Counted from the stretch's first letter, positions 22,449-51,125 are shown. The stretch: 64,000 nucleotides of DNA from Candidatus Limnocylindrales bacterium (GCA_049520815.1 JBEKPL010000002.1:14654-78653); one strand, 5' to 3'. Translations and numbers: made by a program. Notes: a model not told the origin generated them from the letters alone.

Positions 22449-22552
22449 CGGGTGCGGCCGCCAGCCTACACTGGGGCCCGTTTCTTGGTTTGCTCACGTC
22501 GGGACAAGGCGTCAGCTCCTCCTGGCCCTACCCGTTATCCGGCCGTGGCTGA

Positions 22553-22756
22553 TACGCGCATTCTTCTCCTGTCGACTGCTCCACTGGGAGATTAACGCGA
22601 TTGATCGCGTTGGGGCTGCGGATCATCGATGCTCGATGGGTACGGCTATCTCGGATGTCCAGAATCGGGCATTTCTCCGTGATCGGGAACCTGTCTTCAC
22701 TTCACCTCGGCGAGGAAGCATCGATCGGCAACTAGAACTCAATATCGTCGGCAGCG
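22553..22756 (+). pseudogene. Upstream remnant of the hexapeptide acetyltransferase, cut off by an in-frame TAG
   Basis: The frame of ORF 22757-23212 reads 'GLRIIDARWVRLSRMSRIGHFSVIGNLSSLHLGEEASIGN' and then TAG at 22733-22735. The hexapeptide-like periodicity continues across the stop. Confidence 0.5.
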
Positions 22757-25122: not shown

Positions 25123-25196
25123 AGAATCCACGGCACTCACCGGTTGCGCTCCCGTGGCTTGGAGGCAGGCAGTTCGAGAGTGGAGACTGACCCAAG

Positions 25197-28402: not shown

Positions 28403-28520
28403 CGCGAACGCGATGACGAACAACGCGGGAGAGCGGCCAGAGCCGTCTTCGAGTCCTTACCCCTACAAGTAGAGGGCCATATTGGGGCAGCTTGAGCCTG
28501 CCGAGCTGGACATATTGCGG

Positions 28521-28642
28521 TCACAAGCTGCCGGACTGCCAAGGCTCCAAACACCGCGCGTGATGGCCTGATGTCCGTGTACTCTGGGCCTGCCGTCGTG
28601 CCGCTGCACAAGGGAGAATGAAACGAACAACCAGGGGCCACG
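28521..28642 (+). repeat. Copy 1 of a ~120-bp diverged direct repeat upstream of a plus-strand gene
   Basis: Blocks CTGCCGGACTGCCAAGGC (17/18 versus 31782-31799), CTCTGGGCC (9/9, same 36-37 nt spacing) and 'gaaacgaacaacca' versus 'gagacgaatagcca' (11/14). Confidence 0.65.
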
Positions 28643-28657
28643 ATCGAGGCTTCATCC

Positions 28658-29677
28658 TTGAGTCCGGCAGACACGCGAAATGTCGACACTCCGCTCGTGT
28701 CCGTCGTCGTTCCGGTGCACGGATCTGCCGAGTACTTGGAGACGACGCTGCGGGCGATCCAGAGCCAAACGTATAGGCCCATAGAGGTTGTGATCGTCAA
28801 CGAGCGAGCGACAGCCGATCTGAGGTCACGGGTGAGGGCCGTTCTTCCCGACGCCGTCGTCGTCGATTCGGCCGCACCCGGTCCGAGCGCGGCCAGGAAC
28901 TCAGGTCTCGCACACTCCGTCGGTCAGTTCGTCGCCTTCCTGGATTGCGATGACGTCTGGCTGCCAGGTTTCGTCTCGGCCCTGGTTGCGGAACTCGTAC
29001 GTACCCCTTCGGCTGTCTTGGTTGGGTGCACATTCATCGAGTTCGATGCCCGCGGTCCGCGGGCAATTCGTCCGTTCAGGCGAGTGCGCCTTTCACCGGA
29101 TCCCGTCCGCTCGACGTTGATCGACTATCAGGGCCCGCCGTCAGTCGTATTGTGTAGGCGAGATGTGGTGGACCGGCTCGGCGGGTGGGGCGAATATGCT
29201 GCCCTGGAGGACCGGGTCTTCTTCGGCCGCATGGCCGTCGCCGGTCCCGTAGCGCACGTCGACCAGCCTCTCGCCCTCTATCGTATCCATCCGGACAACC
29301 TGACTCGTCGCCAAGCCACAACTGATCCCAATTCGTTGTACCTCGCCGTGCGACAGGCGAACGAGGCAGTCCTGAAGGAGATCGAGGCATCTCCCCGCAA
29401 GACGCGCCTGGAGCGAACCCTGGATGCCAATGCACATCGGTCCGCGGCGCAGTTCCATCTCCTCGCGGGCAACCGACGGATGGCAGTTCGAGAGGGCCTG
29501 AAGGCTCTCCGCCTCGCGCCGACCAGCCCAGAGCCGTACTTCGTCCTACTGCGAGCGCTTCTGGGCGACCGGGTAGCGCGACGTCTTCGTAGCTCGGTCG
29601 AGCCAACGTTCTCCGAGGAGATCCGTGAGCAAGTGCGGCGAGCCAACCAGCCGACAGCGAGACCCCCTCAGCCGTGA
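28658..29677 (+). CDS. Glycosyltransferase family 2
   Basis: Motifs 'LVSVVVPVHGSAEYLETTLRAIQSQTY' and 'FLDCDD'. TTG start. Confidence 0.8.
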   Translation: MSPADTRNVDTPLVSVVVPVHGSAEYLETTLRAIQSQTYRPIEVVIVNERATADLRSRVRAVLPDAVVVDSAAPGPSAARNSGLAHSVGQFVAFLDCDDVWLPGFVSALVAELVRTPSAVLVGCTFIEFDARGPRAIRPFRRVRLSPDPVRSTLIDYQGPPSVVLCRRDVVDRLGGWGEYAALEDRVFFGRMAVAGPVAHVDQPLALYRIHPDNLTRRQATTDPNSLYLAVRQANEAVLKEIEASPRKTRLERTLDANAHRSAAQFHLLAGNRRMAVREGLKALRLAPTSPEPYFVLLRALLGDRVARRLRSSVEPTFSEEIREQVRRANQPTARPPQP

Positions 29678-29943
29678 CGGACCGACCCAATGCGCAGCTC
29701 GGATTTCGCTCCGGCGTCCCTATGCCTTCCTGACAGCCCCGAGGGCTTGCTGGCGCGACGGCGACGCATCTTACTCCGTTACTCCGTCAAGCCAAGTTCA
29801 CATACGACGACGCCGCTCTTGTCCTGTGCGCTCCGAGCGGGTGCAGTTCAGCGGTCCGCTCAGCCGATACCCACAGCGGCCTCTTTGCGGACGCTGTCAC
29901 CACAATGACCCTCGGATGCGGAATTCATAGGTCTTGCGACCCG

Positions 29944-30030
29944 GTTTCACGCGAATTGTCCACCGGAACTCGCCGGAATTGGCCGACCGTTTCACGGCTT
30001 TTGGCCACTCGTTTCACGGCTAGTGGTCAC
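29944..30030 (+). repeat. Triple terminal direct repeats GTTTCACGsnnnnTGkyCAC (IS21-type multiple transposase-binding repeats)
   Basis: gtttcacgcgaattgtccac (29944-29963), gtttcacggcttttggccac (29989-30008) and gtttcacggctagtggtcac (30011-30030). Confidence 0.75.
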
Positions 30031-30139
30031 CCCTCCTCGGAGACCACCAGCAGCGGCGGCGTGAGGTCGTCGGACACCGCACCATGGCCTCGATGTCGTC
30101 CATCGAGGAGAGATGCCGGTGCCCCGTTCCCGTTCTGCG

Positions 30140-30603
30140 ATGCGCAAGATCAGAGAAGTCCTGCGGCTTGCCCAGCCGAGGTCCCTATCGCCGACCCAGA
30201 TCGCGATCGCGGCGAGCTTACCGCGGACGACGGTCCGCAACTATCTGTCCCGCGCTGCGGCCGCCGGCCTGATCTGGCCGCTGCCGCCTGATCTCGATGA
30301 TCGCGGTCTAGAAGAGCGGCTCTTCGGGAGACCCGCTCCACCGCCGACGATCCTGGCGCGCCCCGTTCCCGACTGGGAAGAGCTCCACGCCGAGCTGCGC
30401 CGGCCCGGAGTCACCCAGGCCCTGCTATGGTCCGAGTATCGGGAGCACTATCCCGATCGCTTCGGATACACCTGTCCACCGAGACCTATCACGCCTATGC
30501 CGGCAAGCTCGATCTCGTGATGCGCCAGGACCATCACGCTGGCGAGAAGCTCTTTCTGGACTTCGCCGGCGACACGACCCCGATCGTCGACCCCGACACC
30601 GGC
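30140..30603 (+). pseudogene. istA: istA (IS21 transposase) fragment, frameshifted near 30470 and truncated after 'DPDTG'
   Basis: 'MRKIREVLRLAQPRSLSPTQIAIAASLPRTTVRNYLSRAAAAGLIWP..LLWSEYREHYPDRFGY' continues in another frame as 'YAGKLDLVMRQDHHAGEKLFLDFAGDTTPIVDPDTG'. Confidence 0.75.
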
Positions 30604-30647
30604 GGGTGCTGCTGCCAGACGAGCCTCAAGCGCGCGGCAAGTCAAGC

Positions 30648-31439
30648 TCACGGTGTCCCGCCATTGAAGACGCACCACCCCGAGTCTCCAGCCACCGTGC
30701 ATGCAAATCCGAGACTCTCCATGAGGAGAACCACATCTTCTGACGTCGTGCCAAGGGCTCGGAGTTGTCTAGGATGCAGTTCGAGCGCAACTTGTCTGAC
30801 CGCGCCACGCCGGAATACCTCGCGAGCACCATCAATGACGTGAGATTCGTACCCTTCGACGTCTATCTTCATGAGGTCCACCGTTTCGACGCCCAAAGAC
30901 GGCAAGAGGTCGTCGAGCTTGACCTGCGTGACATGCTCACGCCTAGTCGGATAACGGACGGGAGGAGTCGCCGACGATGCACCGGTGTTCACGGAAGGCA
31001 TGATGTGGAGAACAAGGACTCCGGCAACATCACCCACCGCCGCCCGCACGACATTCACGTTGGAGCAGCTATTCAGCCCGAGGTTGGCAGCTAGTACATC
31101 CGCCACCCTTTCTTGTGGCTCAACTGCCACAACACGCCCGCTGGCGCCGACGAGCGCTGAAGCCATGACCGTGAAGTATCCCTCGTTTGCGCCCACGTCG
31201 ACGAAGGTCATCCCGGCGCTGAGGTTGTCGGCTAGGCGTCGCGTCATCGACGGTTCGTACGCGCCAGTGCGAATAAGTTCTGCTCCGAAGTATGAGACTG
31301 GATCTACGAGAAACCTCCCAGCGGGGACGTGGACCTCGCGGCGCCGAACCCGCAGTAGCACCTTCACGACCGACAAAGCTGCAGCTGGCCTCATACGGAA
31401 GAGGCTGCGCTCCAATCGCGAGAGACTCTCCGGTGCCAC
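30648..31439 (-). CDS. FkbM-family SAM-dependent methyltransferase
   Basis: Motif 'FVDVGANEGYFTVMASALVGASGRVVAVEPQERVADVLAANL..NVNVVRAAVGD'. Confidence 0.8.
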   Translation of the reverse strand: MAPESLSRLERSLFRMRPAAALSVVKVLLRVRRREVHVPAGRFLVDPVSYFGAELIRTGAYEPSMTRRLADNLSAGMTFVDVGANEGYFTVMASALVGASGRVVAVEPQERVADVLAANLGLNSCSNVNVVRAAVGDVAGVLVLHIMPSVNTGASSATPPVRYPTRREHVTQVKLDDLLPSLGVETVDLMKIDVEGYESHVIDGAREVFRRGAVRQVALELHPRQLRALGTTSEDVVLLMESLGFACTVAGDSGWCVFNGGTP

Positions 31440-31513
31440 GAGCGATCCCTTCTTCCTCAGCCTAGTAAGCGGACTATCTCGAGCACGGCTAACCCCCGGT
31501 CGCTCAACGGCGG

Positions 31514-31858
31514 CTACCGGTCGGTGCCGTACCGAGAGTCCCGCTGACGTCCTGAATACACGTTGCGCTGCCGTGCGCGCGGTTCATTGCTGCCTCGCGA
31601 GCACGGGGCCAAGCGACCATCGCCCGGCGAATTGAACCAGTTGTGTCCGCCGCGTCTCACCCAGTCAACGGATCTTAGCAGATGGGCGCCGGCCAGCGAG
31701 TGTCGGAAGGCCCGATCCTCTAGATACCGGCCCCACTCCACGCCCAGATTCTCCGTCATGCTGGCCGGGAAGGTACAATAACTGCCCGACTGCCAAGGCC
31801 TAGCTACCATCCGCTGCGGTCGGATATCGATATGCTCTGGGCCGTACCATCCGCGCAT
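31514..31858 (-). CDS. Hypothetical 114-aa ORF (possibly spurious or a gene remnant)
   Basis: Co-oriented with the FkbM gene. No motif recognised. Many A/T-ending codons. Its 5' part coincides with repeat copy 2. Confidence 0.2.
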   Translation of the reverse strand: MRGWYGPEHIDIRPQRMVARPWQSGSYCTFPASMTENLGVEWGRYLEDRAFRHSLAGAHLLRSVDWVRRGGHNWFNSPGDGRLAPCSRGSNEPRARQRNVYSGRQRDSRYGTDR

Positions 31859-31897
31859 GCCGTTACAAGAGCAGAGCGAGACGAATAGCCACGAGGC
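31772..31897 (+). repeat. Copy 2 of the ~120-bp diverged direct repeat upstream of a plus-strand operon
   Basis: See copy 1. It ends about 20 nt before ATG 31916. Confidence 0.65.
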
Positions 31898-31915
31898 CAG
31901 GAATCACGGGAGACC

Positions 31916-32950
31916 ATGCTCCCATGGCGAAAGCGAAGCATGAGGGTCGCGGTCATCGGCTGCGGTCTGATCGGCACGCGCCGAGCGAAAGTCGCAGTCG
32001 ACTCGGGTGACGAGGTCGTCGTTGTTGCCGACATCTCCGCAGACCGCGCCCAAGCTGTAGCCGAGGCAACACGGTCAAAATGGACCGTGTCCTGGCCGGA
32101 GATCGTTTCTCGCGACGACATTGACGTCGTGGTCGTGTCCACATCCAACGATCTTCTCGCTGAAGCCTCGATCGCGGCACTGGAGTCGGGCAAGCACGTC
32201 TTGTGCGAGAAACCATTGGGCCGCAACGCCGCAGAAGCCACCGCGATCGTCGCAGCGGCCCAGGCGGCGGGGCGGCTACTCAAGGTCGGGTTCAACCACC
32301 GCCATCACCCGGCAATCGCCGCTGCGCGCGAGCTGGTGGGCGAAGGCGCAATTGGTGATGTTTTCGCGATCCGGGCGCTGTACGGGCACGGTGGCCGGGC
32401 GGGGTACGAGCGAGAATGGCGAGCGAACCCGGCTCGTTCGGGGGGTGGCGAGCTCCTGGACCAGGGCGTCCATATCGTGGATCTGGCGCGCTGGTTCATC
32501 GGGGAGATAGCTCAGGCCCAGGGCTACGTCGGAACATATCACTGGCCGATCCAACCGGTCGAGGACAACGCGTTCGCGCTCCTGCGCGCTAGCAGTGGTG
32601 GCATCGTGTCGTTCCACACGAGTTGGACTCAATGGAAGAACGCCTTCCGTTTCGAGGTACTCGGAACCGGCGGCTATCTTCGAATCGACGGACTTGGCGG
32701 CTCTTACGGTACCGAGCGCTTGACCCTCGCGAAGCGGAACGAGGACTCCTCGCCGCCCGTGGAGGAAACAACTTCATTCGAGGGCCCAGACCAGTCATGG
32801 CGCAGCGAGTGGCAGGAGTTCTCGACGGCGATCGGGCAGAACAGGCAACCCCTCGGCAACGGCGACGACGGTCTTGCGGCTGCGCGCATTCTCGACGCGA
32901 TCTACGAATCCGCCGCGTCGGGAAATGCCGTCGAGGTGGCTCACGCATGA
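31916..32950 (+). CDS. Gfo/Idh/MocA-family NAD(P)-dependent oxidoreductase
   Basis: 'MRVAVIGCGLIGTRRAKV' Rossmann N-terminus and 'GKHVLCEKPL'. Start is ATG 31916 or 31940. Confidence 0.85.
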   Translation: MLPWRKRSMRVAVIGCGLIGTRRAKVAVDSGDEVVVVADISADRAQAVAEATRSKWTVSWPEIVSRDDIDVVVVSTSNDLLAEASIAALESGKHVLCEKPLGRNAAEATAIVAAAQAAGRLLKVGFNHRHHPAIAAARELVGEGAIGDVFAIRALYGHGGRAGYEREWRANPARSGGGELLDQGVHIVDLARWFIGEIAQAQGYVGTYHWPIQPVEDNAFALLRASSGGIVSFHTSWTQWKNAFRFEVLGTGGYLRIDGLGGSYGTERLTLAKRNEDSSPPVEETTSFEGPDQSWRSEWQEFSTAIGQNRQPLGNGDDGLAAARILDAIYESAASGNAVEVAHA

Positions 32951-33678
32951 AGGCGATGCTGCTCGCCGCAGGACTTGGAACTCGCCTGTACCCGCTCACG
33001 GCGGATCGGCCGAAGTGCATGGTCTCCGTGGCCGGCCGCGAGGTCCTGATCCGCAATATCGACTGGCTTCGCTCGAATGGGATCCATGACCTGGTGATCA
33101 ATCTCCATCATCACGCGGAAGCGGTAGTGGACTCCATCGGTGACGGGTCGCGCCTGGGCGTGAGCGTGGCATATTCTCGCGAGCCAGAGTTGCTGGGTAC
33201 CGCCGGAGGGGTCCTGGCTGCGCGATCCCTGCTCGGGGACGAAACGTTCATCGTCGTCTACGCGGATAACCTGTTCGATGTCAGACTTCGGGCAGTGGTT
33301 GATGAGCATCGCCATTTCGGAGCGGAGGCCAGCATGCTGCTACTGGAGCGTCCGGATGTGAGCAGCAGTGGAGTGGCCGTGCTCGACGATGCCGGGTGGA
33401 TCACGGAATTCCAGGAGAAGCCCCGGCCGGGAACAGAGAGGAGCCACTGGGTGAACGCCGGCCTCTTGGTCTGCGAGCCTGAGTTGTTCGAAGTCATTCC
33501 CGGTGCAACCCCCAGCGACCTGAGCCTCGACGTCATGCCGAAGCTGGCGGAGCGTCAGCACGCGCTGCGAGGCCACCGTCTGGCACATGGCGAGCGCGTG
33601 ATGTGGATCGATACCATGGATGACCTAAGGGCGACCGAGGCAATGCTGGCAACCACAAGCGGCAGGGGTGGCCGATGA
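32947..33678 (+). CDS. hddC: Sugar-1-phosphate nucleotidylyltransferase (D-glycero-alpha-D-manno-heptose-1-P guanylyltransferase-like)
   Basis: Motif 'MKAMLLAAGLGTRLYPLTADRPKCMV'. ATGA overlap with the upstream gene. The operon context includes hddA, gmhA and gmhB. Confidence 0.75.
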   Translation: MKAMLLAAGLGTRLYPLTADRPKCMVSVAGREVLIRNIDWLRSNGIHDLVINLHHHAEAVVDSIGDGSRLGVSVAYSREPELLGTAGGVLAARSLLGDETFIVVYADNLFDVRLRAVVDEHRHFGAEASMLLLERPDVSSSGVAVLDDAGWITEFQEKPRPGTERSHWVNAGLLVCEPELFEVIPGATPSDLSLDVMPKLAERQHALRGHRLAHGERVMWIDTMDDLRATEAMLATTSGRGGR

Positions 33679-34664
33679 TCCTGACCAGGGCGCCGCTCCG
33701 CATCGCGCTCGGCGGTGGCGGCACCGATCTCCCTTCCTACTACGAGCAGCACGGCGGCTTCATTCTCAGCGCCGCCATCGACAAGTACGTGTACGTCTAC
33801 CTGAATAGGCCGGCGGCCGACGATCTCATCAGGGTCAAGTACACGCGTTACGAGGAAGTCACCACGCCCTCCGAAGTCCAGCACGATCTCGTGCGTCCCG
33901 CCCTGATCGAATTGGGAATACCGGGGAACATAGAGATCACGTCCATGGCGGACGTCCCCGCGGGAACCGGACTGGGCTCGTCGGCGACGTACCTGGTCGC
34001 GCTTCTAACCGGCCTGCATGAGTTGAAGCGCGAACGTATTCCCACACACGCACTCGCCGAAGAGGCTTGCCATATCGAGATGGACCTTGCCGGGCACGCC
34101 GTTGGCAAGCACGACCACTACATGGCGGCTTTCGGCGGCATTACGTGCCTGGAGATCGAGCGGGATGGTCGTGTCACCGTAACCCCGCTGGACATCTCCC
34201 CTACGGCAGCAGCCGAGCTTCGGCACAATGTCCTGCTCTTCTTCACGGGCATTACCAGGAGCGCCAACACCATCCTGGCGGAACAGAAGCGCGACACGGC
34301 CTCGGCCCAACCGGACGTTGTCGAGAGCCTGCACCGGACCAAGGAGTTGGGACGGCAAGTCAAGTCCGCGCTCGAAGCCGGTCGAGTCGACGAGTTCGGC
34401 GTGATCCTGCACGAACACTGGGAAAACAAGAAGCGCCGATCGGCCCTCATCAGCAATCCCGATGTCGATCGCTGGTATGGGATCGCCCGCGACTGCGGTG
34501 CCTTGGGCGGGAAGCTCGTTGGCGCGGGGGGAGGAGGGTTCCTCCTGCTCTACTGCCCGGGAACCGCAAAGGCCGCAGTGCGCGAGGCGCTTGGCCGCGA
34601 AGGGCTCCGCGAGATGCCCTACGCGTTCGACTACGACGGCGCCAAGGTGATGCTGAACGTATGA
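33675..34664 (+). CDS. hddA: GHMP kinase, D-glycero-alpha-D-manno-heptose-7-phosphate kinase-like
   Basis: 'MILTRAPLRIALGGGGTDLPSYYEQHGGFILSAAIDKYVYV' and 'PAGTGLGSSAT' (GHMP motif II). ATGA overlap. Confidence 0.8.
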   Translation: MILTRAPLRIALGGGGTDLPSYYEQHGGFILSAAIDKYVYVYLNRPAADDLIRVKYTRYEEVTTPSEVQHDLVRPALIELGIPGNIEITSMADVPAGTGLGSSATYLVALLTGLHELKRERIPTHALAEEACHIEMDLAGHAVGKHDHYMAAFGGITCLEIERDGRVTVTPLDISPTAAAELRHNVLLFFTGITRSANTILAEQKRDTASAQPDVVESLHRTKELGRQVKSALEAGRVDEFGVILHEHWENKKRRSALISNPDVDRWYGIARDCGALGGKLVGAGGGGFLLLYCPGTAKAAVREALGREGLREMPYAFDYDGAKVMLNV

Positions 34665-35800
34665 GCCTCGTCCTCGTCACCGGTGGAGCCGGCTTCATCG
34701 GGTCTCACACGGTCGACCTCCTGCTCGAGAAAGGGTATGAGGTCCGGATCATCGATTCGCTGCAGCCTCGGGTCCACCCCAGGGGCAAGCCCACGTACGT
34801 TCCGAAGGACATCGAGTTCATCCAGGGCGACGTAGCTAACCGCGCCGACATGGAACGGGCTCTCCAGGGCGTGGACTATGTGTTTCACATGGCTGCCTAC
34901 CAGGACTACCTGCCCGATTTCAGCACGTTCATCCACACCAACACCGAGTCGACTGCTCTGATCTTCGAGCTGGCGGTCTCCGATCCGGACCGTTTCCCGC
35001 TCCGCAAACTCGTCGTGGCGTCATCGCAGTCGGTGTCGGGCGAGGGCAAGTACAAGTGCAACGCTGAGGACACCATCTTCTACCCGGACCCGAGAACGCC
35101 TGATCAGCTCCAGCGCGGCGAGTGGGAGATCCCCTGTCCGACCTGCGGCTCCGCGGCTACGCCGCTCCTGATCGACGAGGCGACCTGCAGCAACCCTGGA
35201 ACCACGTACGGCGTCTCCAAGTACGCCCTCGAGCTGCTGGCTTTCAACCTGGGTCGCCGATACGGCATCGAGACCGCGGCGATGCGCTACACGTACGTCC
35301 AGGGGCCGCGCAACTCGTTCTACAACGCCTATTCGGGCATTGCGAGGCGCTTCGCCCTGCGTATCCGGGCTGGGCTTCCCCCGGTCTGCTACGAAGATGG
35401 GCTCCAGAGACGCGACTACGTGAATGTTCGGGACGTCGCCAGAGCCAACCTCATCGCCCTCGAGAACCCACTGTCGAACGGCCTGGCGTTCAACGTCGGT
35501 GGTGGCCGCGCCGTCACGGTTCTCGAGTTCGCCAGGATGATGCTCGACGCCTCGGGTAGTAACCTGGAGCCGATGGTGCCCGGCGAGTATCGGCTTGGTG
35601 ATACCCGCCACACCGTGAGTGACCTCACGAGGATGCGGTCGCTTGGCTGGGAGCCTCACACCCCGGTCGAAGACAATGTTCGCCAGTACCTCGAGTGGCT
35701 CGATACGCAGGTGGGCACGGACGAATACCTGCTGGAAGCCGAGCGGGTGATGAAGGAGATGGGAGTCGTGCGCAAGGTTGACCGCAAGGTACGACCATGA
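34661..35800 (+). CDS. NAD-dependent epimerase/dehydratase (extended SDR) with a Cys-rich insertion
   Basis: Motifs 'LVLVTGGAGFIGSHTVDLLLEKGY' and 'YGVSKYA'. The insert is 'KYKCNAEDTIFYPDPRTPDQLQRGEWEIPCPTCGS'. ATGA overlap. Confidence 0.8.
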   Translation: MSLVLVTGGAGFIGSHTVDLLLEKGYEVRIIDSLQPRVHPRGKPTYVPKDIEFIQGDVANRADMERALQGVDYVFHMAAYQDYLPDFSTFIHTNTESTALIFELAVSDPDRFPLRKLVVASSQSVSGEGKYKCNAEDTIFYPDPRTPDQLQRGEWEIPCPTCGSAATPLLIDEATCSNPGTTYGVSKYALELLAFNLGRRYGIETAAMRYTYVQGPRNSFYNAYSGIARRFALRIRAGLPPVCYEDGLQRRDYVNVRDVARANLIALENPLSNGLAFNVGGGRAVTVLEFARMMLDASGSNLEPMVPGEYRLGDTRHTVSDLTRMRSLGWEPHTPVEDNVRQYLEWLDTQVGTDEYLLEAERVMKEMGVVRKVDRKVRP

Positions 35801-35807
35801 GGACGGA

Positions 35808-36401
35808 ATGACCTACACAGACGAGTTCCTCTCCAACTCCAAGAAGATCATCGATCTTCTCGATCGAGAGGCAATCGAGCGCATCGCTTCGGAGCTCGCT
35901 GCCGTTCGAGCTCGTGGCGGTCGCCTATTCATCCTCGGGTCGGGCGGCGGCGCGGGGCATGCCTCGCATGCGGTCAACGACTTCCGCAAGATCGCCGGCA
36001 TCGAAGCGTACGCGCCCACGGACAACGTGTCCGAGCTCACCGCCCGGATCAACGACGAGGGCTGGGAGACGAGCTACTCCAACTGGCTCCGTGTAAGCCG
36101 GATCGAGGCGTCCGATGCGATCCTGATCTTCTCCGTCGGTGGCGGCGATGCCGTTCGCAGCATCAGCGTCAACCTGGTCCGATGCATCGACCTTGCTCGG
36201 GAGGTCGGGGCGACCGTTCTGGGCATCGTCGGCCGCGACGGAGGCTACACCGCTGCCGTCGGCGAAGCCGTCGTGATCGCACCCGTGGACCGCGACACCG
36301 TCACCCCGCAGACGGAGGGCCTCCAGGCGGTCATCTGGCATCTGCTGGTCTCCCATCCGGCCGTTCGTCAGAAGCCTGGGAAATGGGAGTCGGCCACTTG
36401 A
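35808..36401 (+). CDS. gmhA: SIS-domain sedoheptulose-7-phosphate isomerase
   Basis: Motifs 'GGRLFILGSGGGAGHASHAVNDFRK' and 'ILIFSVGGG'. ATG 35808 is preceded by GGACGGA. Confidence 0.8.
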   Translation: MTYTDEFLSNSKKIIDLLDREAIERIASELAAVRARGGRLFILGSGGGAGHASHAVNDFRKIAGIEAYAPTDNVSELTARINDEGWETSYSNWLRVSRIEASDAILIFSVGGGDAVRSISVNLVRCIDLAREVGATVLGIVGRDGGYTAAVGEAVVIAPVDRDTVTPQTEGLQAVIWHLLVSHPAVRQKPGKWESAT

Positions 36402-36958
36402 GCGGTCGGCCTGCGGTCTTCCTGGATCGGGACGGCGTACTGAACCAGAGCCTCATCGGTGCGGACGGCGTGCCCCGGCCACCGGCCGGCCTGGCTCAAT
36501 TCGCGCTTGTCGATGGAGCGGCCGAGGCCTGCTGCCGTCTCGGCGCGCTTGGCTTGCTGCGGATCGTGGTCACGAACCAGCCCGACGTGGCGCGAGGCAC
36601 GCAGCGACGCGAGGTCGTGGAGGCGATCCATCAACGGCTGCGAGAAAGCGTGTCGGTGGACGACATCCGGATCTGCTATCACGACGACGATGACCTCTGC
36701 GATTGCCGGAAGCCGAAGCCGGGCCTGCTGCTGTCGGCTGCGAATGATTGGGGGATCGATTTGGCAGCCAGCTTCATGATCGGCGACCGTTGGCGGGATA
36801 TCGAAGCGGGCCAGCGGGCCGGCTGTACGACGATCCTGATCGACACGCGTACGACCCAGCCTCTTGCGATCGAGCCGACGGTTCGAGTCGAATCACTTTC
36901 GAGCGCTGTAAGCTGGATCAGCGAGCGTGTCGCACGAGCGACGGGAGCAGCCAGATGA
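36383..36958 (+). CDS. gmhB: HAD-IIIA D,D-heptose-1,7-bisphosphate phosphatase
   Basis: Motifs 'AVFLDRDGVLN', 'VVTNQPDVARG', 'CDCRKPKPGLL' and 'IGDRWRDIEAG'. Start is ATG 36383 or TTG 36398 (TTGA overlap). Confidence 0.85.
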   Translation: MGVGHLSGRPAVFLDRDGVLNQSLIGADGVPRPPAGLAQFALVDGAAEACCRLGALGLLRIVVTNQPDVARGTQRREVVEAIHQRLRESVSVDDIRICYHDDDDLCDCRKPKPGLLLSAANDWGIDLAASFMIGDRWRDIEAGQRAGCTTILIDTRTTQPLAIEPTVRVESLSSAVSWISERVARATGAAR

Positions 36959-38253
36959 GGGTCTGCGTTGCCGGCCTCTGGCACCTCGGCACGATCACCG
37001 CGGCGTGCCTGGCGGCTGCCGGCCACGACGTAGTGGGTCACGATCCGGACCCGCAGAGGGTTGAGCTACTGGCGTCTGGCCGGGCACCGATCCAGGAACC
37101 TGGCCTCGACGCGCTCATCGGCGAAGGGCTCGCCAGCGGGAGGCTTCGTTTCTCCTCGGACGCGGCCGGGGCTGCCCGCGAAGCCCAGCTCGTCTGGATC
37201 AGCTACGACACCCCCGTGGACAGTTCTGATCGAGCCGATCCGGACTCGGTGGTCAAGGCCGCGACCGACTTCTTCCCCTCCCTCGGCGCAGGATCGGTCA
37301 TGCTGATCTCATCACAACTGCCGGTCGGAAGCACGCGCCAACTCATGAGATCCTTCGAGCGGCTGGGTGGGGATCGTTCCGTAGCATTCGCCTATAGTCC
37401 GGAGAACCTGAGGCTGGGTACCGCCATCGACTCGTTCACCAAGCCGGAGCGGATTGTCGTTGGCGTGGAGAACCCGAACGGTCGGGCAGTCATCACGGCT
37501 CTTCTCGAGCCTCTCGGAGCGCCGATCGAATGGATGCCTATCGAGGCGGCCGAGATGACGAAACACGCCCTGAACGTATTCCTGGCCACCTCAATCGTCT
37601 TCGCCAATGAGATCGCCGCGATCTGCGAGTCAGTCGGAACCGATGTTGCCGACGTCGTTCGCGCGTTGCGAGGCGATCCTCGCATCGGCCAGCGGGCGTA
37701 TCTCGGCTTCGGGACGGGCTATGCGGGTGGGACTCTTGGGCGCGACGTGACCTACCTGGCCGACCTGATCTCCGAGCGACACCTCGAGGCGCCGCTCTTG
37801 ACCAGCATCAGCCCGAGCAACCGGCATCAGCAGGGATGGGTGCGGCGCGCGCTGCGCTCCCAGCTGGGGGAGTTGCGCGGTCTACGGATTGGGATCTGGG
37901 GTCTTACCTACAAGCCTGGCACGGATACGCTCCGCCGGTCTGCCTCGATCGAGCTGTGTGAGTGGTTGGCGGACCGGGGCGCAATCCCAGCTGCACACGA
38001 TCCGGCCGTGCACGCCCTGCCGCCAGCCCTTGCCGGTCGCATCGACCTGCAGCCTGATGGGCTCAGCGCGGTTCGAGGCGCAGATGCTCTGGTCGTCATG
38101 ACACCGTGGCCGGAGTACCGGCTGGTCCCGCCCGACGCAGTCGTGGCTGAGCTCCGACGGCCTGTCATCGTGGACCCTGCGCGGTTCCTTGCCCTGCTGT
38201 TCGGGACCGATCCCAGGGTTCGGTATTCGGCCGTCGGATTGGCCCGAGCATGA
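36955..38253 (+). CDS. UDP-glucose/GDP-mannose dehydrogenase-family protein lacking the catalytic cysteine
   Basis: 'MRVCVAGLWHLGTITAACLAAAGHDVVGHD' and 'EMTKHALNVFLATSIVFANEIA' fit the family. However, 'GTGYAGGTLGRDVTYL' aligns to the family's 'SFGYGGYCLPKDTKQL' with Thr in place of the catalytic Cys. ATGA overlap. Confidence 0.75.
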   Translation: MRVCVAGLWHLGTITAACLAAAGHDVVGHDPDPQRVELLASGRAPIQEPGLDALIGEGLASGRLRFSSDAAGAAREAQLVWISYDTPVDSSDRADPDSVVKAATDFFPSLGAGSVMLISSQLPVGSTRQLMRSFERLGGDRSVAFAYSPENLRLGTAIDSFTKPERIVVGVENPNGRAVITALLEPLGAPIEWMPIEAAEMTKHALNVFLATSIVFANEIAAICESVGTDVADVVRALRGDPRIGQRAYLGFGTGYAGGTLGRDVTYLADLISERHLEAPLLTSISPSNRHQQGWVRRALRSQLGELRGLRIGIWGLTYKPGTDTLRRSASIELCEWLADRGAIPAAHDPAVHALPPALAGRIDLQPDGLSAVRGADALVVMTPWPEYRLVPPDAVVAELRRPVIVDPARFLALLFGTDPRVRYSAVGLARA

Positions 38254-39116
38254 CGCAGGCACTGCAGGGTCGCTCCGCGCTGATCACCGGGGCGAGCATG
38301 GGACTGGGACTGGCCATCGCTCGCGCCTACCTGGAGGCGGGCGCAAACGTAATCGTCTGTGCTCGCGACAAAGGCCCTCTTGACGACGCGCTCCGCGAAC
38401 TGGCCAGCCTGGCGAAAGAGGGCCAGATCGTGGCCGCTGAGACCGGGGACGTATCCAATCCAAGCGATGCTGATCGGCTTGTCGCGGCCAGCCTGGAGCG
38501 GGTCCCGGAGTTGCACATCCTCGTCAACAACGCCGGGGTCTACGGCCCGAAAGGGACGATCGACGAGGTCGAGTGGGAGCCGTGGGCCGAAGCGATCCGA
38601 GTCAACCTGCTGGGCTCGGTACTCATGGCTCGGGCCGTCCTCCCTCATTTCAAGGCGCACCGGTACGGCAAGATCGTCCAGTTGTCCGGTGGAGGCGCCA
38701 CGGCCCCCCTTCCTCGGATCAGCGCCTACGCGGCCTCGAAAGCAGGGGTCGTCCGGTTCGCCGAAACGTTGGCTGAAGAGGTCCGTGAGTTCGGCATCGA
38801 CGTGAACTCCATGGCGCCCGGAGCTCTCAACACACGACTCCTTGACGAAGTCCTCGAGGCCGGGCCGGAGAAGGTGGGGCGCGAGTTCTACGAGCGCGCG
38901 GCCCGCCAGGCCGCCGAGGGCGGCACATCGTTCGACCGAGGAGCTGGACTGGCCGTGTTCCTTGGGTCGTCCCTGAGTGACGGAATCACCGGTAAGCTGA
39001 TCAGCGCAGTGTGGGACCCATGGGAGACGTTGGCCGCCCATACTGCCGATCTCCAATCAAGTGACGTGTATACGCTGCGGCGCATCGTGCCCAAAGACCG
39101 TGGTTTGGTCTGGTAG
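38250..39116 (+). CDS. Classical short-chain dehydrogenase/reductase (SDR)
   Basis: Motifs 'ALITGASMGLGLAIA', 'NNAG' and 'YAASKAG'. ATGA overlap. Confidence 0.85.
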   Translation: MTQALQGRSALITGASMGLGLAIARAYLEAGANVIVCARDKGPLDDALRELASLAKEGQIVAAETGDVSNPSDADRLVAASLERVPELHILVNNAGVYGPKGTIDEVEWEPWAEAIRVNLLGSVLMARAVLPHFKAHRYGKIVQLSGGGATAPLPRISAYAASKAGVVRFAETLAEEVREFGIDVNSMAPGALNTRLLDEVLEAGPEKVGREFYERAARQAAEGGTSFDRGAGLAVFLGSSLSDGITGKLISAVWDPWETLAAHTADLQSSDVYTLRRIVPKDRGLVW

Positions 39117-39868
39117 TGGGACCCGCCGTAGGTGGAAGGCCAGGTCGAGATTTGACGACGTTGAGCGATCTGCGGGTCAAGGTGTTCGCCGATGGCGCGG
39201 ACCTCGCGGGCATGATCGAGATGCGGGCCAACCCGCTGATCCGGGGATTCACGACGAATCCCACCCTCATGCGTAAGTCGGGGGTCTCAGACTACCGAGC
39301 CTTTGCGCGGGCAGTCCTCGCCGCCATCCCGGACCGTCCGATCAGCTTCGAAGTACTGTCCGATGAGTTCGAAGTCATGCATCGACAGGCAGTCGAGCTC
39401 GCAGGCTGGGGCGCGAACGTGTTCGTGAAGATCCCTATCACGGACACGCAAGGGAGATCGAGCGCGGATCTCCTGCGTCGACTGGCTGCGGAGGGCATTC
39501 GAGTCAACGTGACCGCCATCCTGACCCTCGAGCAGGTAGCGGTAGCTGCCGAGGCTGTGTCGGCGTCCCCTGCTGCGGTCATCTCCGTCTTTGCCGGACG
39601 AATCGCGGACACCGGGCGCGATCCCGTGCCGCTGATGGAACGGGCTCTGGAGATCCTGCGGCCGCATCTGAACACCGAACTGCTCTGGGCGAGCCCACGT
39701 GAGCTTCTGAACATCCTCCAGGCGGACGAAATCGGGTGCCACATCATCACGGCCACGACCGACATCCTCAAGAAGCTCGATCTGGTCGGGAAGGATCTTT
39801 CGGAGTTCTCGCTCGAGACGGTGCAGATGTTCGTTCGCGATGCCCAGCTGGCGGGACTCGAACTCTAG
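39116..39868 (+). CDS. Transaldolase-family protein (short Fsa/TalC-like type)
   Basis: Motifs 'VFADGADLAGMIEM..IRGFTTNPTLM' and 'NVFVKIPIT' (Schiff-base Lys context). The start is uncertain; TTG 39152 or 39161 is plausible. Confidence 0.7.
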   Translation: MGPAVGGRPGRDLTTLSDLRVKVFADGADLAGMIEMRANPLIRGFTTNPTLMRKSGVSDYRAFARAVLAAIPDRPISFEVLSDEFEVMHRQAVELAGWGANVFVKIPITDTQGRSSADLLRRLAAEGIRVNVTAILTLEQVAVAAEAVSASPAAVISVFAGRIADTGRDPVPLMERALEILRPHLNTELLWASPRELLNILQADEIGCHIITATTDILKKLDLVGKDLSEFSLETVQMFVRDAQLAGLEL

Positions 39869-41046
39869 ATTGAAGGGTCTCCGAGTTCTCTCGACACCTG
39901 GGAGGCCCATCCAAGTCCGCCCGCGCGCTCGGCCACAACCGTCATCTTGTTACCGAAACGGCCGAGCACCGAGTTGCCGACTCGCCAGGACGATCGAGCC
40001 AACGGGAACAGCCCTCGCCGGCTGAGCAAGCCGAAGGCCCGTCCGGGCTCGTGGCGGTAGTACATCAGATACCGCCCATCGGCCAGCGTCCGAAATCCCA
40101 GTCCCTCGAGCTCAGCGGAGATCTCACCCGGGCGAAGCCGCATGACCACGTTGCCCGACTCCTCCTTATGCAACGCCAGACCGAGCTTCACCGCCAGCCG
40201 GGTTCCGGCGGCCCGTGCGGGCTCCGTGATCGAGACGGCCCTCCCGACCCTCGCCATCTCGGCGATCCCCTTCTCCGGATGCTCGAGGTGGTGGAGGCCA
40301 TCGTGGACGTAAACCAGGTCCACAGCAGCGTCCCCGGCAGGTAGCCGCTCGACGTCGGCAACGATCGAGAGGAGCGGGAACCCGCCACGCCGCGCTCGTT
40401 CACGGGCACGCTTGGCGGCCCCCAGCGAGATGTCGGAGGTTACCACAGCAGCGCCGCACTCCCGGAGGAACTCGGCATCCATACCTGATCCGCCGCACAC
40501 GACCAGTGCGGTCGCGCCGTCGAGTCGTCTTCCCAGCGGCGCCACCGCCCGCCGGAACTTCTCCCGCAGCAGCCACTCGTACAGCGGCGCCGTCCCGTGG
40601 GGGCGCGTCGTCTCGAACTCAGCCGCCGTCTCGCGATCGAAGTGCGCCGCCTGACGATCCTTGTGCTCGTCAGAAGTTCCGTGGCTGTGCCCATGTTCGT
40701 GGTCCAGTTCGTCCTGGTCAGCCGCAGCCCGATCGGCAATCAGAACGGGGATACCGTCCTCGATCGGATATCGCTGTCCGCAGCCATCACAGCTGGCTTC
40801 ATCCGGCCCCCAGGAGAGATGCGAACGGCACGCCGGGCACGAGAGGAGGGATTTCAGGCGCTCTATGTCATCTGGGGATTCGACGTGCGTCGCTCTGCCG
40901 TCTGTTGGCGCGGATATCACGGCGCGCACAGAGCCGGCGTCACTTCCTTCGGCGAGAGGAACGACGGGAGTTCGGCGAGCCAGGGCGAAACCCGCCGGGA
41001 TGTTGGGTAGACGGTGCGTGGTCCCAAAGCCCGCAGAATGTAGCAC
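39865..41046 (-). CDS. Zn-ribbon (Trm112-like) plus SAM-dependent methyltransferase, paralogue of the C-terminal half of 26186-28402
   Basis: 'CPACRSHL..CDGCGQRYPIEDGIPVL' and 'LVVCGGSGMDAEFL..VYVHDGLHHLEHP'. The C-terminal 'GRFGNKMTVVAER' is shared with the fusion protein. The start may be internal. Confidence 0.8.
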   Translation of the reverse strand: MLHSAGFGTTHRLPNIPAGFALARRTPVVPLAEGSDAGSVRAVISAPTDGRATHVESPDDIERLKSLLSCPACRSHLSWGPDEASCDGCGQRYPIEDGIPVLIADRAAADQDELDHEHGHSHGTSDEHKDRQAAHFDRETAAEFETTRPHGTAPLYEWLLREKFRRAVAPLGRRLDGATALVVCGGSGMDAEFLRECGAAVVTSDISLGAAKRARERARRGGFPLLSIVADVERLPAGDAAVDLVYVHDGLHHLEHPEKGIAEMARVGRAVSITEPARAAGTRLAVKLGLALHKEESGNVVMRLRPGEISAELEGLGFRTLADGRYLMYYRHEPGRAFGLLSRRGLFPLARSSWRVGNSVLGRFGNKMTVVAERAGGLGWASQVSRELGDPSI

Positions 41047-41181: not shown

Positions 41182-42381
41182 GTGATCGAACGCATCAGGG
41201 CTGGACTCGAACGCACCCGGACCAGGATCAGACCCATCTGGATCGGCCACCGTAAGCTAACGATCGCCGTTGGCGCGATCGCGATCGTGGCGATCGTCGG
41301 CACTGGGCTGCTGGTATGGCTCAGACCGGCGCAGGCGTCTCCAGCGGCTAGCCCTTCGTCGTCGCCGTCCCCGACCGCCTCTCCTACCCCGTCTCCTACC
41401 GCCTCACCAACGGCCTCACCGACCCCTTCACCCTCTCCCACCGAAGCGGGCCCCACGGATCTGCCCAGCGGATGGGAGTACAGCGATCTTGACGGAGTGG
41501 CGGCTCCGGCCAACCTCGCCCACCGCCTGCCGTTGGCGATCTCGATCGGCGACAACGCCATCGCCCGACCGCAGTCGGGCTTCTCTTCGGCCTCGATCGT
41601 CTACCAGTCGTATGAGGAATACGGCGAAGACCGCTACATGATGATCTTCCAGGAAGGAACCGCATCCGATATCGGCGGCATGCGGAGCGGTCGACCCTAC
41701 TTCGTGCGGTGGGCAGCCGAGTACAAGGCGCTGTACGGCCATGACGGGGGCGACACCAAGGTTCGCAGGGTGACGATCCCCGCGATGGCCAGCTACTTCT
41801 ACAACATGGACCCTGGCGCCGGCGGAGCTTGCCCCTACCACCGCATCACGACCAGAGTGGCTCCCCACAACGAGTACACGAACACGGCGGACCTCATCCG
41901 CTGCGCGGCGAGCAAGGGCTACCCGGCGACTTACCAGGGCCCACCCTCCCGACCCTTCGTCGCCGACATCCCGGCGGCCGAACGGCCCGAGACCGAGGCG
42001 GTCTTCGTCCCCTATCGCACCGTCTCCGTGAGTTACCAGTACTACCCGGAGAACGACTCGTACGTTCGCATCCTCGACGGGAAGCTTCAGATCGATCCGG
42101 CCAACAACCAGCAAGTGATCGCCCGCAACATCGTCGTCATGTTCCAGACGGTCACCAACGACTACATGGACTACAACATACAGAGAATCGCCATCGGCAA
42201 TGTCGGCTCGGGCAAGGCCATCGTCTTCAAGGAAGGCAAGGCGACCACCGGCACCTGGAAGAAGGATTCGGACTCGGCCCTGACCCACTATTACGACGAC
42301 TCGGGCAGGGAGATCCCGTTCGTTCGCGGCGAGATCTTCATACAGAGCGTCCCGCCCGGAACGGCCGTCACCTACAAATAG
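41182..42381 (+). CDS. DUF3048 (YerB-like) membrane-anchored protein, paralogue 2
   Basis: 'PLAISIGDNAIARPQSGFSSASIVYQ..GEDRYMMIFQ..RSGRPYFVRWAAEY'. The C-terminal 'GSGKAIVFKEGKATTGTWKK..IPFVRGEIFIQSVPPGTAVTYK' is nearly identical to paralogue 1. Confidence 0.8.
   Translation: MIERIRAGLERTRTRIRPIWIGHRKLTIAVGAIAIVAIVGTGLLVWLRPAQASPAASPSSSPSPTASPTPSPTASPTASPTPSPSPTEAGPTDLPSGWEYSDLDGVAAPANLAHRLPLAISIGDNAIARPQSGFSSASIVYQSYEEYGEDRYMMIFQEGTASDIGGMRSGRPYFVRWAAEYKALYGHDGGDTKVRRVTIPAMASYFYNMDPGAGGACPYHRITTRVAPHNEYTNTADLIRCAASKGYPATYQGPPSRPFVADIPAAERPETEAVFVPYRTVSVSYQYYPENDSYVRILDGKLQIDPANNQQVIARNIVVMFQTVTNDYMDYNIQRIAIGNVGSGKAIVFKEGKATTGTWKKDSDSALTHYYDDSGREIPFVRGEIFIQSVPPGTAVTYK
41347..41443 (+). repeat. 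Ser/Pro/Thr/Ala-rich low-complexity coding repeat (linker of DUF3048 paralogue 2)
   Basis: It encodes 'SPSSSPSPTASPTPSPTASPTASPTPSPSPT'. Confidence 0.8.
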
Positions 42382-42393
42382 GCACCCGCCGGG

Positions 42394-43905
42394 TCACGCC
42401 TGGCAGGCCGCCGGCACGACCCCCGGGAGCCCGTAGTAGCTGCTCTCCGAGCCGAACAACGCCACCGACAGGTTGGCGACCAGCGCCATGTCCAGCCGGC
42501 TGGTCCACGTCCCGCCCGTGGTGGACGTGTCCGGATGGTAGCTGTAGGGCGGACCAAGCACGCAGTTGGATATCGAGGTCACGTGCTGGGCGGCCGACAC
42601 GTAGTCGCGGGCGGTCGCGAGCGGAAAGTCCGTGGCGACGACCTTGCCGGCCAGCGAGATAAGGTTGCCCACATTCGGCAGGATGGACGGACTCGCCACC
42701 TTCCGCTCCAGAGCCACGAGCAGGGCCTGCTGGCGAGCTGCTCGCTGGTAATCACTGCCGCCCGCTCCTTCACGAGAGCGGACGTACAGCATGGCCAAAG
42801 AGCCGTTGAGGTGGACGCGGCCGACGCCCATCTCTATTCCGGTCGACGGGTCGTCGATCGCCCGCTCGTTGTAGATGTCCACGCCCCCGATCGCGTTGAT
42901 CATGCTGGCGAGGCCTCCCAGGTCGAGTGCGGCGTAGTAGTCGATGGGCAGGCCGACCAGGAAACTGACCTCCTTCTTCAGGGTGATCATCGGCGGATCC
43001 GGAGACTTGTAGTAGCCGTTGATCAGCTTGTTGACCAGCTCATTGAGCTTCAACCCGGACTCGGCCCAGCCGCCGTAGTACAGGTCGAAGGCGGAGGTGT
43101 CGCGGGGCACGCTGATCATGGTCACCTTGCCCGTCCCGGTGTCCATGCTCACAACCATCATGGTATCCGTGATGGCGTTTTGGAAGGCTCGGCCGGGCAT
43201 GTTGTCCAGGCCCACGACCAGGAAGGTGATCCGATTGGGATTCTTCGTTCGAGCGGGCGTAGGGTCGGCGCTCCGCTCGACGGTGGCTGCGGGATGGAAC
43301 GCCGACAGGTCGAGCGGCGTGGGAATCGGGGTGGCGGTGGGGCTGGGGCTGGGGGAGGACGAGGTGCCCGCAGCGAAGATGTTGTTGTTGGCCGCGATGT
43401 CGAGATCCGCCTGATGTACGAGCCATGCGTCGGCGGCCACGTAGGTGTGCATCCCGACGATGGCCACGAGGAGGGCGGCAACGACACCCGCCTCCAGGGG
43501 GCGGAAGCGGAAGCGCCGGGCCCGCGGCGCGGAGAGGAAGGCGTGGGCGGTCGACGCGACGCGCAAGGCCCCGGCCAGGACGACGAGAACGGCCACGGTC
43601 AGGGCATAGCTCTCGTCGAGCATGCTCGCGCCAACCCACCACAGCCCGTGGGTGAGCTGGACCACGACCCACACCGTCAGAACCAGGGCTGGCAGAGCGA
43701 AGATGGCGGCCCAGGCCCGGCGACCCAGGAACAGCTGGCCCAGGCCCGGCCAGAGGAAGGACAGAGCGGCCGCGATCAGGGGCGAGCGACGACGTACCGC
43801 CGGCTCAGCGGTGGAGTCGGGCTCGTGGGCGGAGCCGGGCTCGCCGGCCACCGGCTCAGCGCCGAAGCCGGCCTCCTCTGCGGTGTCTCGAGTCTCGTTC
43901 CCCAT
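42394..43905 (-). CDS. LCP (LytR-CpsA-Psr) family glycopolymer-to-peptidoglycan ligase
   Basis: N-terminal TM helices followed by 'RITFLVVGLDNMPGR..TDTMMVVSMDTGTGKVTMISVPRDT'. Confidence 0.85.
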   Translation of the reverse strand: MGNETRDTAEEAGFGAEPVAGEPGSAHEPDSTAEPAVRRRSPLIAAALSFLWPGLGQLFLGRRAWAAIFALPALVLTVWVVVQLTHGLWWVGASMLDESYALTVAVLVVLAGALRVASTAHAFLSAPRARRFRFRPLEAGVVAALLVAIVGMHTYVAADAWLVHQADLDIAANNNIFAAGTSSSPSPSPTATPIPTPLDLSAFHPAATVERSADPTPARTKNPNRITFLVVGLDNMPGRAFQNAITDTMMVVSMDTGTGKVTMISVPRDTSAFDLYYGGWAESGLKLNELVNKLINGYYKSPDPPMITLKKEVSFLVGLPIDYYAALDLGGLASMINAIGGVDIYNERAIDDPSTGIEMGVGRVHLNGSLAMLYVRSREGAGGSDYQRAARQQALLVALERKVASPSILPNVGNLISLAGKVVATDFPLATARDYVSAAQHVTSISNCVLGPPYSYHPDTSTTGGTWTSRLDMALVANLSVALFGSESSYYGLPGVVPAACQA

Positions 43906-44731: not shown

Positions 44732-44798
44732 GATTGGCTCCCTTCTGCTCGAATTCCGGTCCGGCTGGTTCGAGCCCCCTCCAGCGTGGGCCTCTACC

Positions 44799-46594: not shown

Positions 46595-46604
46595 CGTCCC
46601 TCCC

Positions 46605-49083: not shown

Positions 49084-49113
49084 GGGGCGGCTCCTGGTGG
49101 CGTGGGCTGCGGC

Positions 49114-51122: not shown

Positions 51123-51125
51123 TGC

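Follow-up and report, generated by a model that had tools for sequence, protein, structure and literature searches.

The octose of the lincosamide antibiotics begins with a transaldolase, LmbR, which is reported to form D-glycero-D-altro-octulose 8-phosphate from fructose 6-phosphate (F6P) or sedoheptulose 7-phosphate (S7P) and ribose 5-phosphate (PMC5854111). The roles and sizes of the Lmb and Ccb enzymes are listed in PMC4351081 (Table 2 and S1 document), and PMC12945683 describes the conversion of guanosine diphosphate (GDP)-octose to GDP-lincosamide by LmbM, LmbL, CcbZ and CcbS. The other closely related described system is the GDP-heptose pathway, which shares its four core enzyme families, its reaction order and its surface-polysaccharide destination with the gene block analyzed here, a module of nine genes (g1 to g9) at positions 31916-39868 of a 64,000-nucleotide stretch, the window, from Candidatus Limnocylindrales bacterium (JBEKPL010000002.1:14654-78653). 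The block encodes an isomerase, a kinase acting at the anomeric position, a phosphatase for the terminal phosphate and a nucleotidyltransferase, which bears out the first-pass annotation to the extent of a self-contained operon for a nucleotide-activated higher-carbon sugar. The product of the module is probably a modified sugar of seven or eight carbons in activated form, and the gene set fits an octose route better than the heptose route first proposed. In its fullest form, drawn by analogy with the lincosamide enzymes and standing at about an even chance, the proposal is of a transaldolase-initiated nucleoside diphosphate (NDP)-octose pathway that would supply an 8-deoxy-octose to the surrounding polysaccharide.

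The nine-gene operon and its lincosamide counterparts

The nine open reading frames (ORFs) are co-directional and tightly packed on the plus strand, and ORF, Pfam and NCBIfam analysis confirmed all nine genes in the families and order first annotated, with the transaldolase linked to the others and with the four redox enzymes for tailoring. The usual catalytic motifs are readable in all nine translations. Gene boundaries were compared with the calls on a 110-kb metagenome contig that contains the window (ENA ERZ27250059 k141_245116). Nearly all junctions had been described as 4-nucleotide (nt) ATGA-type overlaps, which is correct for five of the eight (g1/g2, g2/g3, g3/g4, g6/g7 and g7/g8), or for six if g6 begins at its TTG codon and forms a TTGA overlap with g5, and incorrect for g4/g5, which are 7 nt apart, and for g8/g9. 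With the alternative ATG start of g6, the one called on the source contig, g5 and g6 overlap by 19 nt. The start of g9 is most likely TTG 39152, again the source-contig call, and not GTG 39116, because the resulting product of 238 amino acids (aa) has the length of nearly all its homologues; g8 and g9 are then separated by a 35-nt spacer and do not overlap at 39116. Neither terminator-like nor promoter-like sites were found on the plus strand within 31916-39868, and the nine genes form one operon. The operon appears to be more than a chance arrangement, because the same nine genes recur in the same order on an independent 438-kb contig (L006), with protein identities of 67-86%, and because the gene set recurs in other phyla.

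When the module is set against the lincosamide pathway by family and gene content, and not by sequence orthology, eight of its nine families have a counterpart there, with similar protein sizes (Table 1). The two systems have in common a cluster-encoded transaldolase as the point of entry, after which the isomerase, the 1-kinase, the terminal phosphatase and the nucleotidyltransferase follow in the same order. LmbP, the kinase of the lincosamide pathway, is classed with enzymes of the HddA kind. The two systems differ in their setting, which is an antibiotic cluster for the one and an envelope polysaccharide locus for the other, in the carrier-protein fusions of the lincosamide enzymes, of which the module has none, and in the epimerase, as CcbM with its 325 aa leaves no room for the Cys-rich insert found in g4.

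LmbN was searched for in genome contigs, proteins and structures. Among patterns derived from lmbN primers and run against genome contigs, a 30-mer had no match, and a 19-mer matched four unrelated contigs of metagenome-assembled genomes and none of Streptomyces. Two of the lmbN primers (N-dCPr and ExN_IDF, S1 Table of PMC4351081) differ by one base, and a misprint could therefore explain why the 30-mer had no match; the 19-mer was cross-checked against other primers. In the protein collection, nothing had three 5-residue words in common with a 47-aa LmbN query assembled from primer-translated peptides, and LmbN carrier-domain peptides, compared with the PDB in search of CcbZ-CP, gave no match.

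Table 1. Genes of the module, their family-level lincosamide counterparts and features of the surrounding locus. Sizes of Ccb proteins are given in brackets; proposed roles are by analogy.
Feature	Position	Strand	Assignment	Lincosamide counterpart (family level)	Proposed role
g1	31916-32950	+	Gfo/Idh/MocA oxidoreductase, 344 aa; PF01408, PF02894, PF22725; EKP and D-x3-H motifs	LmbZ/CcbZ, Gfo/Idh/MocA oxidoreductase	Putative side-chain ketoreductase, LmbZ-like by family
g2	32947-33678	+	Sugar-1-phosphate nucleotidyltransferase (NTP_transferase), 243 aa; PF00483; GxGTRL motif	LmbO, guanylyltransferase (CcbO 232 aa)	
g3	33675-34664	+	GHMP anomeric sugar-phosphate kinase, HddA/WcbL/LmbP type, 329 aa; PF00288, PF08544; GLGSSA loop	LmbP, kinase (CcbP 323 aa)	
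g4	34661-35800	+	GalE-like extended SDR, 379 aa; PF01370 match split in two; YxxxK	LmbM, epimerase	Putative epimerase, LmbM-like by family
g5	35808-36401	+	SIS-domain ketose/aldose phosphate isomerase, 197 aa; SIS_2 29 bits	LmbN, C8 isomerase (CcbN 202 aa)	
g6	36383 (ATG, 191 aa) or 36398 (TTG, 186 aa) to 36958	+	HAD-IIIA sugar bisphosphate phosphatase, GmhB/LmbK-like; DxDGV, CxH...CxC	LmbK, phosphatase (CcbK 185 aa)	
g7	36955-38253	+	UDPG_MGDP_dh family, 432 aa; PF03721, PF00984, PF03720; TIGR03026 284 bits, cut-off 190	LmbL, UGDH-like dehydrogenase (CcbL 436 aa)	Putative two-electron dehydrogenase, LmbL-like by family
g8	38250-39116	+	Classical SDR, 288 aa; PF00106 165 bits; YxxxK		Putative ketoreductase, in place of the lincosamide aminotransferase LmbS
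g9	39152-39868	+	Short transaldolase, TIGR02134 type, 238 aa; 326 bits, cut-off 282	LmbR, transaldolase (CcbR 222 aa)	Proposed committed entry step, supplying g5 with its ketose phosphate
Surface-polysaccharide locus	2501-43905		Many glycosyltransferases of families 4 (GT4) and 2 (GT2), epimerases, PMT_2, Wzx-type flippase, fusions, two DUF3048, LCP (Pfam)		
DUF3048 gene	2501-3697	+	One of a pair bracketing the locus		
DUF3048 gene	41182-42381	+	One of a pair bracketing the locus		
LCP gene	42394-43905	-	LytR_cpsA_psr; closes the locus		
Wzy_C fusion	22996-25122	+	Wzy_C membrane domain of O-antigen polymerase/ligase type fused to class I S-adenosylmethionine methyltransferase, 708 aa		
GT4 fusion	26165-28402	+	GT4 fused to methyltransferase, 745 aa		
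GT2 ORF	28658-29677		Intact, TTG start; upstream of g1		
FkbM-family gene	30648-31439	-	Methyltransferase (Methyltransf_21, PF05050, 71 bits); divergent from g1		

The transaldolase as a core pathway gene

The catalytic Asp, Glu and Lys of g9, the last being the Schiff-base residue in the motif VKIP, and the Phe in SVFAGR align with those of the T. maritima transaldolase (PDB 1vpx). Transaldolases have Phe at the position where fructose 6-phosphate aldolases carry Tyr, and g9 has Phe. The protein is of the TIGR02134 type, which we take to be a family defined as housekeeping transaldolase.

The linkage of the transaldolase was assessed in 80 metagenome loci retrieved by a profile search with the g5 family, 25 of which extend for 3 kb or more to either side of the isomerase. 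In these 25 loci, a phosphatase is found no further than about 4.5 kb from the g5-type isomerase in 22 cases, a transaldolase in 19, a kinase in 16 and a g2-type nucleotidyltransferase in 15. All 14 assessable loci with tailoring genes of the g1 and g8 (and g7) types contain a transaldolase. The gene is furthermore found fused in frame, to the isomerase in P0179 and to the phosphatase in L030 and L078; isomerase-phosphatase fusions occur in seven fetched loci, and a nucleotidyltransferase-isomerase fusion also exists. In several modules the TIGR02134-type protein is substituted by a TalC/FSA-type transaldolase with about 32-36% identity, which in one locus (L066) lies inside an otherwise complete nine-gene module. 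Such a swap of subfamilies shows that selection maintains the activity as such. When a TalC-type module transaldolase was compared with plasmids by tblastn, only housekeeping fsa/tal genes and no Streptomyces octose cluster were recovered.

The transaldolase thus belongs to the core of the pathway, and its linkage to the isomerase is as tight as that of the kinase and the phosphatase. The first-pass annotation regarded it as an optional, local supplier of precursor, a view that the linkage, the fusions and the replacement of one subfamily by another do not support.

Octose, heptose and other products

The core enzymes had been identified as GmhA, HddA, GmhB and HddC, and while the families are right, orthology is not supported, as all four proteins score below the heptose equivalog cut-offs. 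The isomerase g5 reaches 27-39 bits with the GmhA equivalog models of NCBIfam, the cut-offs of which are 209-320, and at most 37 bits with the GmhA structures in the PDB, its sole detectable solved relatives, and its phosphate-binding loop has a six-residue insertion relative to them. Canonical GmhA proteins, found in 159 plasmid records that span many phyla, are 33-65% identical to a B. pseudomallei GmhA fragment. The g5 family itself comprises 375 clusters at 50% identity (E<=1e-30), and the isomerase is homologous to GmhA yet represents a separate SIS family. For g3, the best NCBIfam model is HddA, at 174 bits against a cut-off of 600, and the nearest PDB entries are the heptose 7-phosphate kinases 3k85, 4usk and 4n3o (145-180 bits). 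The phosphatase g6 passes the general HAD-IIIA models TIGR01656 (118 bits, cut-off 84) and TIGR01662 (74 bits, cut-off 44.6) and remains below the three GmhB equivalog cut-offs (120, 86 and 73 bits against 178, 150 and 250, respectively).

The nucleotidyltransferase g2 scores 130 bits for MurU, 118 for AglF and 117 for mannose-1-phosphate guanylyltransferase as opposed to 68 for HddC, the cut-off of which is 300; all these scores are below their cut-offs. The RmlA-long model also ranks above HddC, and the solved HddC structures (5xhw and 6jq8) come only 8th to 10th among the PDB matches. According to the first-pass annotation, a nucleotidyltransferase and a kinase clustering with hexose-specific enzymes would refute the heptose module, and this is what was found in part, in that g2 prefers the MurU, AglF and mannose-1-phosphate guanylyltransferase models over HddC. 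GDP is assumed, by analogy, as the nucleotide that g2 would use. The NCBI names of the copies in Lawsonia intracellularis are generic ('SIS domain-containing protein', 'HAD-IIIA family hydrolase', 'galactokinase' and 'nucleotidyltransferase family protein').

The tailoring enzymes have subfamily features of their own. The sequence GGTLGRD of g7 aligns with GGSCFPKD of the UGDH structure 4a7p and places Thr at the position of the catalytic Cys. The earlier description of g7 as Cys-less is accurate in this respect, although other cysteines are present in the protein. Like the members of the UGDH/GMD family (PDB 4a7p, 3gg2 and 1mfz), g7 has three domains and keeps the positions of the catalytic Lys, Asn and Asp, and it differs from them by the Thr and by its dinucleotide-binding motif; in the module-linked homologues GLWHLG replaces GxGYVG, and GGTL(G/A)RD replaces GGSCFPKD. 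Given the exchange of Cys for Thr, four-electron oxidation to an acid via a thioester would therefore not be expected. In g4, the best PDB match of which is the UDP-glucose 4-epimerase 4zrm, an insert of about 35 aa contains three invariant cysteines, C-x(~28)-CPxC, that are conserved in all six close homologues. The insert looks like a possible metal-binding knuckle, and the form of g4 that carries it is limited to a subset of the loci. Homologues of g1 in module loci are 45-77% identical to it, and those of g8, at 42-77% identity, adjoin g1 homologues in 13 other module loci; no specific NCBIfam model was passed by g8. Each of the four redox enzymes could plausibly act on a three-carbon side chain (C6-C8), and by inference a heptose, with only two side-chain carbons, would offer no equally economical assignment.

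By analogy with the lincosamide enzymes, g9 would transfer a C3 unit from F6P or S7P onto ribose 5-phosphate, and the resulting octulose 8-phosphate would be converted by g5 to the aldose 8-phosphate, phosphorylated at C1 by g3, relieved of its terminal phosphate by g6 and activated by g2 to an NDP-octose, presumably with GDP. In the side-chain tailoring that would follow, g4 would carry out an epimerisation, g7 would oxidise a side-chain hydroxyl, thereby permitting loss of the terminal hydroxyl, and g1 would reduce one keto group. In the lincosamide route, LmbM, LmbL and CcbZ reportedly perform 6-epimerisation, 6,8-dehydration and 4-epimerisation, respectively, as described in work from 2020, and CcbS then transaminates C6. 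No aminotransferase was found in 31916-39868 or among the adjacent genes, and g8 would reduce the remaining keto group rather than have it transaminated. With an SDR in place of the aminotransferase, a hydroxyl rather than an amino group would be expected, and the product would be an NDP-8-deoxy-octose, possibly O-methylated later.

The strongest competitor of this scheme, with a substantial though clearly smaller share of the probability, is a GDP-heptose module in which the transaldolase would boost local S7P from F6P and erythrose 4-phosphate and the four redox enzymes would tailor a heptose. Transaldolase does produce S7P when the pentose phosphate pathway's non-oxidative branch runs towards pentoses, and heptoses, unlike octoses, are well known in envelope glycans. 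The kinase g3 is closest to heptose 7-phosphate kinases both in its models and in its solved relatives, g6 is closest to the GmhB-type phosphatases, and the only solved relatives of g5 are GmhA proteins. Set against this are the scores of all four core proteins far under the heptose cut-offs, the preference of g2 for hexose and N-acetylmuramic acid nucleotidyltransferase models, and the position of g5 outside the range of canonical GmhA, which is well conserved across phyla. Characterised heptose loci need no transaldolase: none is present at the four canonical gmhA loci inspected, and none was found described for heptose or polysaccharide loci in the literature searched, which yielded no octose pathway outside the lincosamides either. 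The 20-enzyme heptose set of C. jejuni is likewise without a transaldolase, a UGDH-family or a Gfo/Idh/MocA enzyme, its tailoring relying on a C4-dehydrogenase, 4,6- and 3-dehydratases, cupin epimerases, C4-reductases and mutases, so that the Cys-less UGDH-like and Gfo/Idh/MocA families are absent from the known heptose toolkit and present in the octose one. The retention of the transaldolase across phyla, its fusions and its replacement by another subfamily are also hard to square with the mere boosting of a precursor.

Other observations weigh against the octose scheme. A transaldolase followed by, or fused to, an isomerase would be expected just as much with S7P as the intermediate that the two enzymes share, and six of the 25 assessable loci are without a transaldolase inside about 4.5 kb of the isomerase. 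We know of no non-ulosonic octose reported from any bacterial polysaccharide. The aminotransferase LmbS/CcbS has no counterpart in the module and the classical SDR g8 has none among the Lmb enzymes. CcbR is shorter than g9, and may thus be of the TalC type and not of the TIGR02134 type. Furthermore, the enzymes outside the lincosamide group that came closest to CcbL and CcbM in 2015 were generic, with 33% and 46% identity, respectively (PMC4351081), from which it follows that g7 and g4 may resemble LmbL and LmbM no more than they do ordinary UGDH and GalE. For CcbN, the corresponding match in 2015 was Sorangium cellulosum CAN93908, annotated as a 'sugar phosphatase'. Because the match is one of families, the relatives of CcbL and CcbM outside the lincosamide group were generic, S7P supply is an alternative and some g5-family loci have no nearby transaldolase, the octose scheme is held at an even balance, and the heptose module is left clearly short of that.

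Two further explanations have lower probabilities. A transaldolase acting on another acceptor, such as arabinose 5-phosphate or a hexose 6-phosphate, would lead to an octose of other stereochemistry or to a sugar of nine carbons, and the tailoring chemistry would be unrelated to that of LmbL and LmbZ. In favour of this explanation, the comparative data establish the core status of the transaldolase and not the identity of its acceptor, the replacement of the nucleotidyltransferase in related loci shows the module to be plastic, and g7 is missing from the otherwise complete modules L019, L038 and L085. The explanation is nevertheless improbable, having no precedent and requiring the family-by-family match with the lincosamide pathway to be a coincidence. 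Less credit still is due to g9 as an ordinary pentose-phosphate enzyme that is merely adjacent, or to the whole block as a lincosamide-like antibiotic cluster. The presumed housekeeping nature of TIGR02134 and the spacer between g8 and g9 are compatible with the former, and the resemblance of the gene set to part of an antibiotic cluster with the latter. An incidental neighbour, however, would not be expected to show conserved linkage, in-frame fusions and subfamily replacement. As for an antibiotic, the genes called in the window include none for adenylation, carrier proteins, mycothiol- or ergothioneine-related functions, resistance or an LmbT-type enzyme, and none of the lincosamide-cluster genes LmbC, D, E, F, T and V and LmrA-C; the module is flanked by glycosyltransferases, Wzx/Wzy-type genes and LCP, and Wzm/Wzt or Wzy-type genes are found in the related loci. 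A secondary-metabolite cluster was rejected on the basis of these neighbouring genes.

The polysaccharide locus and the module in other organisms

The genes surrounding the module are those of polysaccharide assembly, in agreement with its original assignment to an envelope polysaccharide, and the locus would consume the sugar that the module makes. The DUF3048 pair together with the LCP gene suggests a wall-anchored glycopolymer and a monoderm-type envelope. In addition to the two methyltransferase fusions and the FkbM-type gene listed in Table 1, a second methyltransferase gene (Methyltransf_11) lies beside the module, convergent with g9, and from these genes the polymer is probably heavily methylated. 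The FkbM gene could possibly serve in O-methylation of the sugar, tentatively as an accessory to the module; Methyltransf_21 genes adjoin the module also in L006 and L008. Between 28400 and 31900 the calls on the source contig are small ORFs that have no Pfam matches, and the FkbM gene is called on a second assembly of the same sequence (L002); no recognisable gene was found at about 29.7-30.6 kb. The G+C content is 0.62-0.66 in 22001-40000, which includes the module, and 0.66-0.72 in most of the remaining window, a shift of a kind that is common for exchangeable polysaccharide gene blocks. Downstream of the locus, a compact block for fatty-acid synthesis and acetyl-CoA carboxylase on the minus strand of 44000-53300 encodes FabG, KAS III, BCCP, KAS II, a FabZ-like protein, AccC and AccA/AccD, with a metallophosphoesterase gene embedded among them.

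Besides the contig with the complete gene order, a reduced module with a close homologue of g9 is found on a 558-kb contig, and a g9 homologue at 73% identity is labelled Chloroflexota. Two named organisms have the gene set as well, Lawsonia intracellularis PHE/MN1-00 on its plasmid 3 (L013, NC_008014, 14.5-23 kb) and Rhizobium jaguaris CCGE525 on the 2.6-Mb replicon pRCCGE525c (L014, NZ_CP032695, about 973-982 kb). In Lawsonia, a gene with a lysylphosphatidylglycerol-synthase-type membrane domain is located between the transaldolase and dehydrogenase genes. Related loci contain polysaccharide genes of either the ABC type (Wzm/Wzt) or the Wzy type. In ten of them (L018, L026, L028, L029, L039, L046, L048, L058, L060 and L063) a GalU-type nucleotidyltransferase, which a search with g2 does not detect, takes the place of the g2 type, which indicates that the activating nucleotide may differ between lineages, and a DegT-type aminotransferase gene near three modules (L017, L019 and L020) makes amino-sugar variants possible.

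What would be new here is a higher-carbon sugar-nucleotide pathway, of the lincosamide type or, failing that, of the heptose type, in a new setting and with a different last step. A more general interpretation, the likelihood of which we place slightly short of even, is that a transaldolase-initiated route to non-ulosonic 8-deoxy-octoses is widespread in surface polysaccharides and that the lincosamide pathway is an offshoot in which an aminotransferase was taken up for the ketoreductase. Such a route would extend over the present lineage, possibly Chloroflexota, many uncultured soil and sediment bacteria, Rhizobium and the pig pathogen Lawsonia intracellularis, and it would point to where the sugar pathway of the lincosamides came from in evolution. 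Three new subfamilies would be defined, namely the GmhA-related isomerase with several hundred clusters at 50% identity, the UGDH-like dehydrogenase with Thr and GLWHLG, and the GalE-like SDR with the three-Cys insert. Were the product a heptose, the module would still represent an uncharacterised and phylogenetically broad tailoring route with a transaldolase hard-wired into nucleotide-sugar synthesis. If it is an octose, a type of sugar hitherto associated with a single family of antibiotics would enter the repertoire of glycans of the bacterial envelope, including those of a veterinary pathogen with a reduced genome, Lawsonia, and of a plant nodule symbiont, Rhizobium jaguaris, both of which carry the module.

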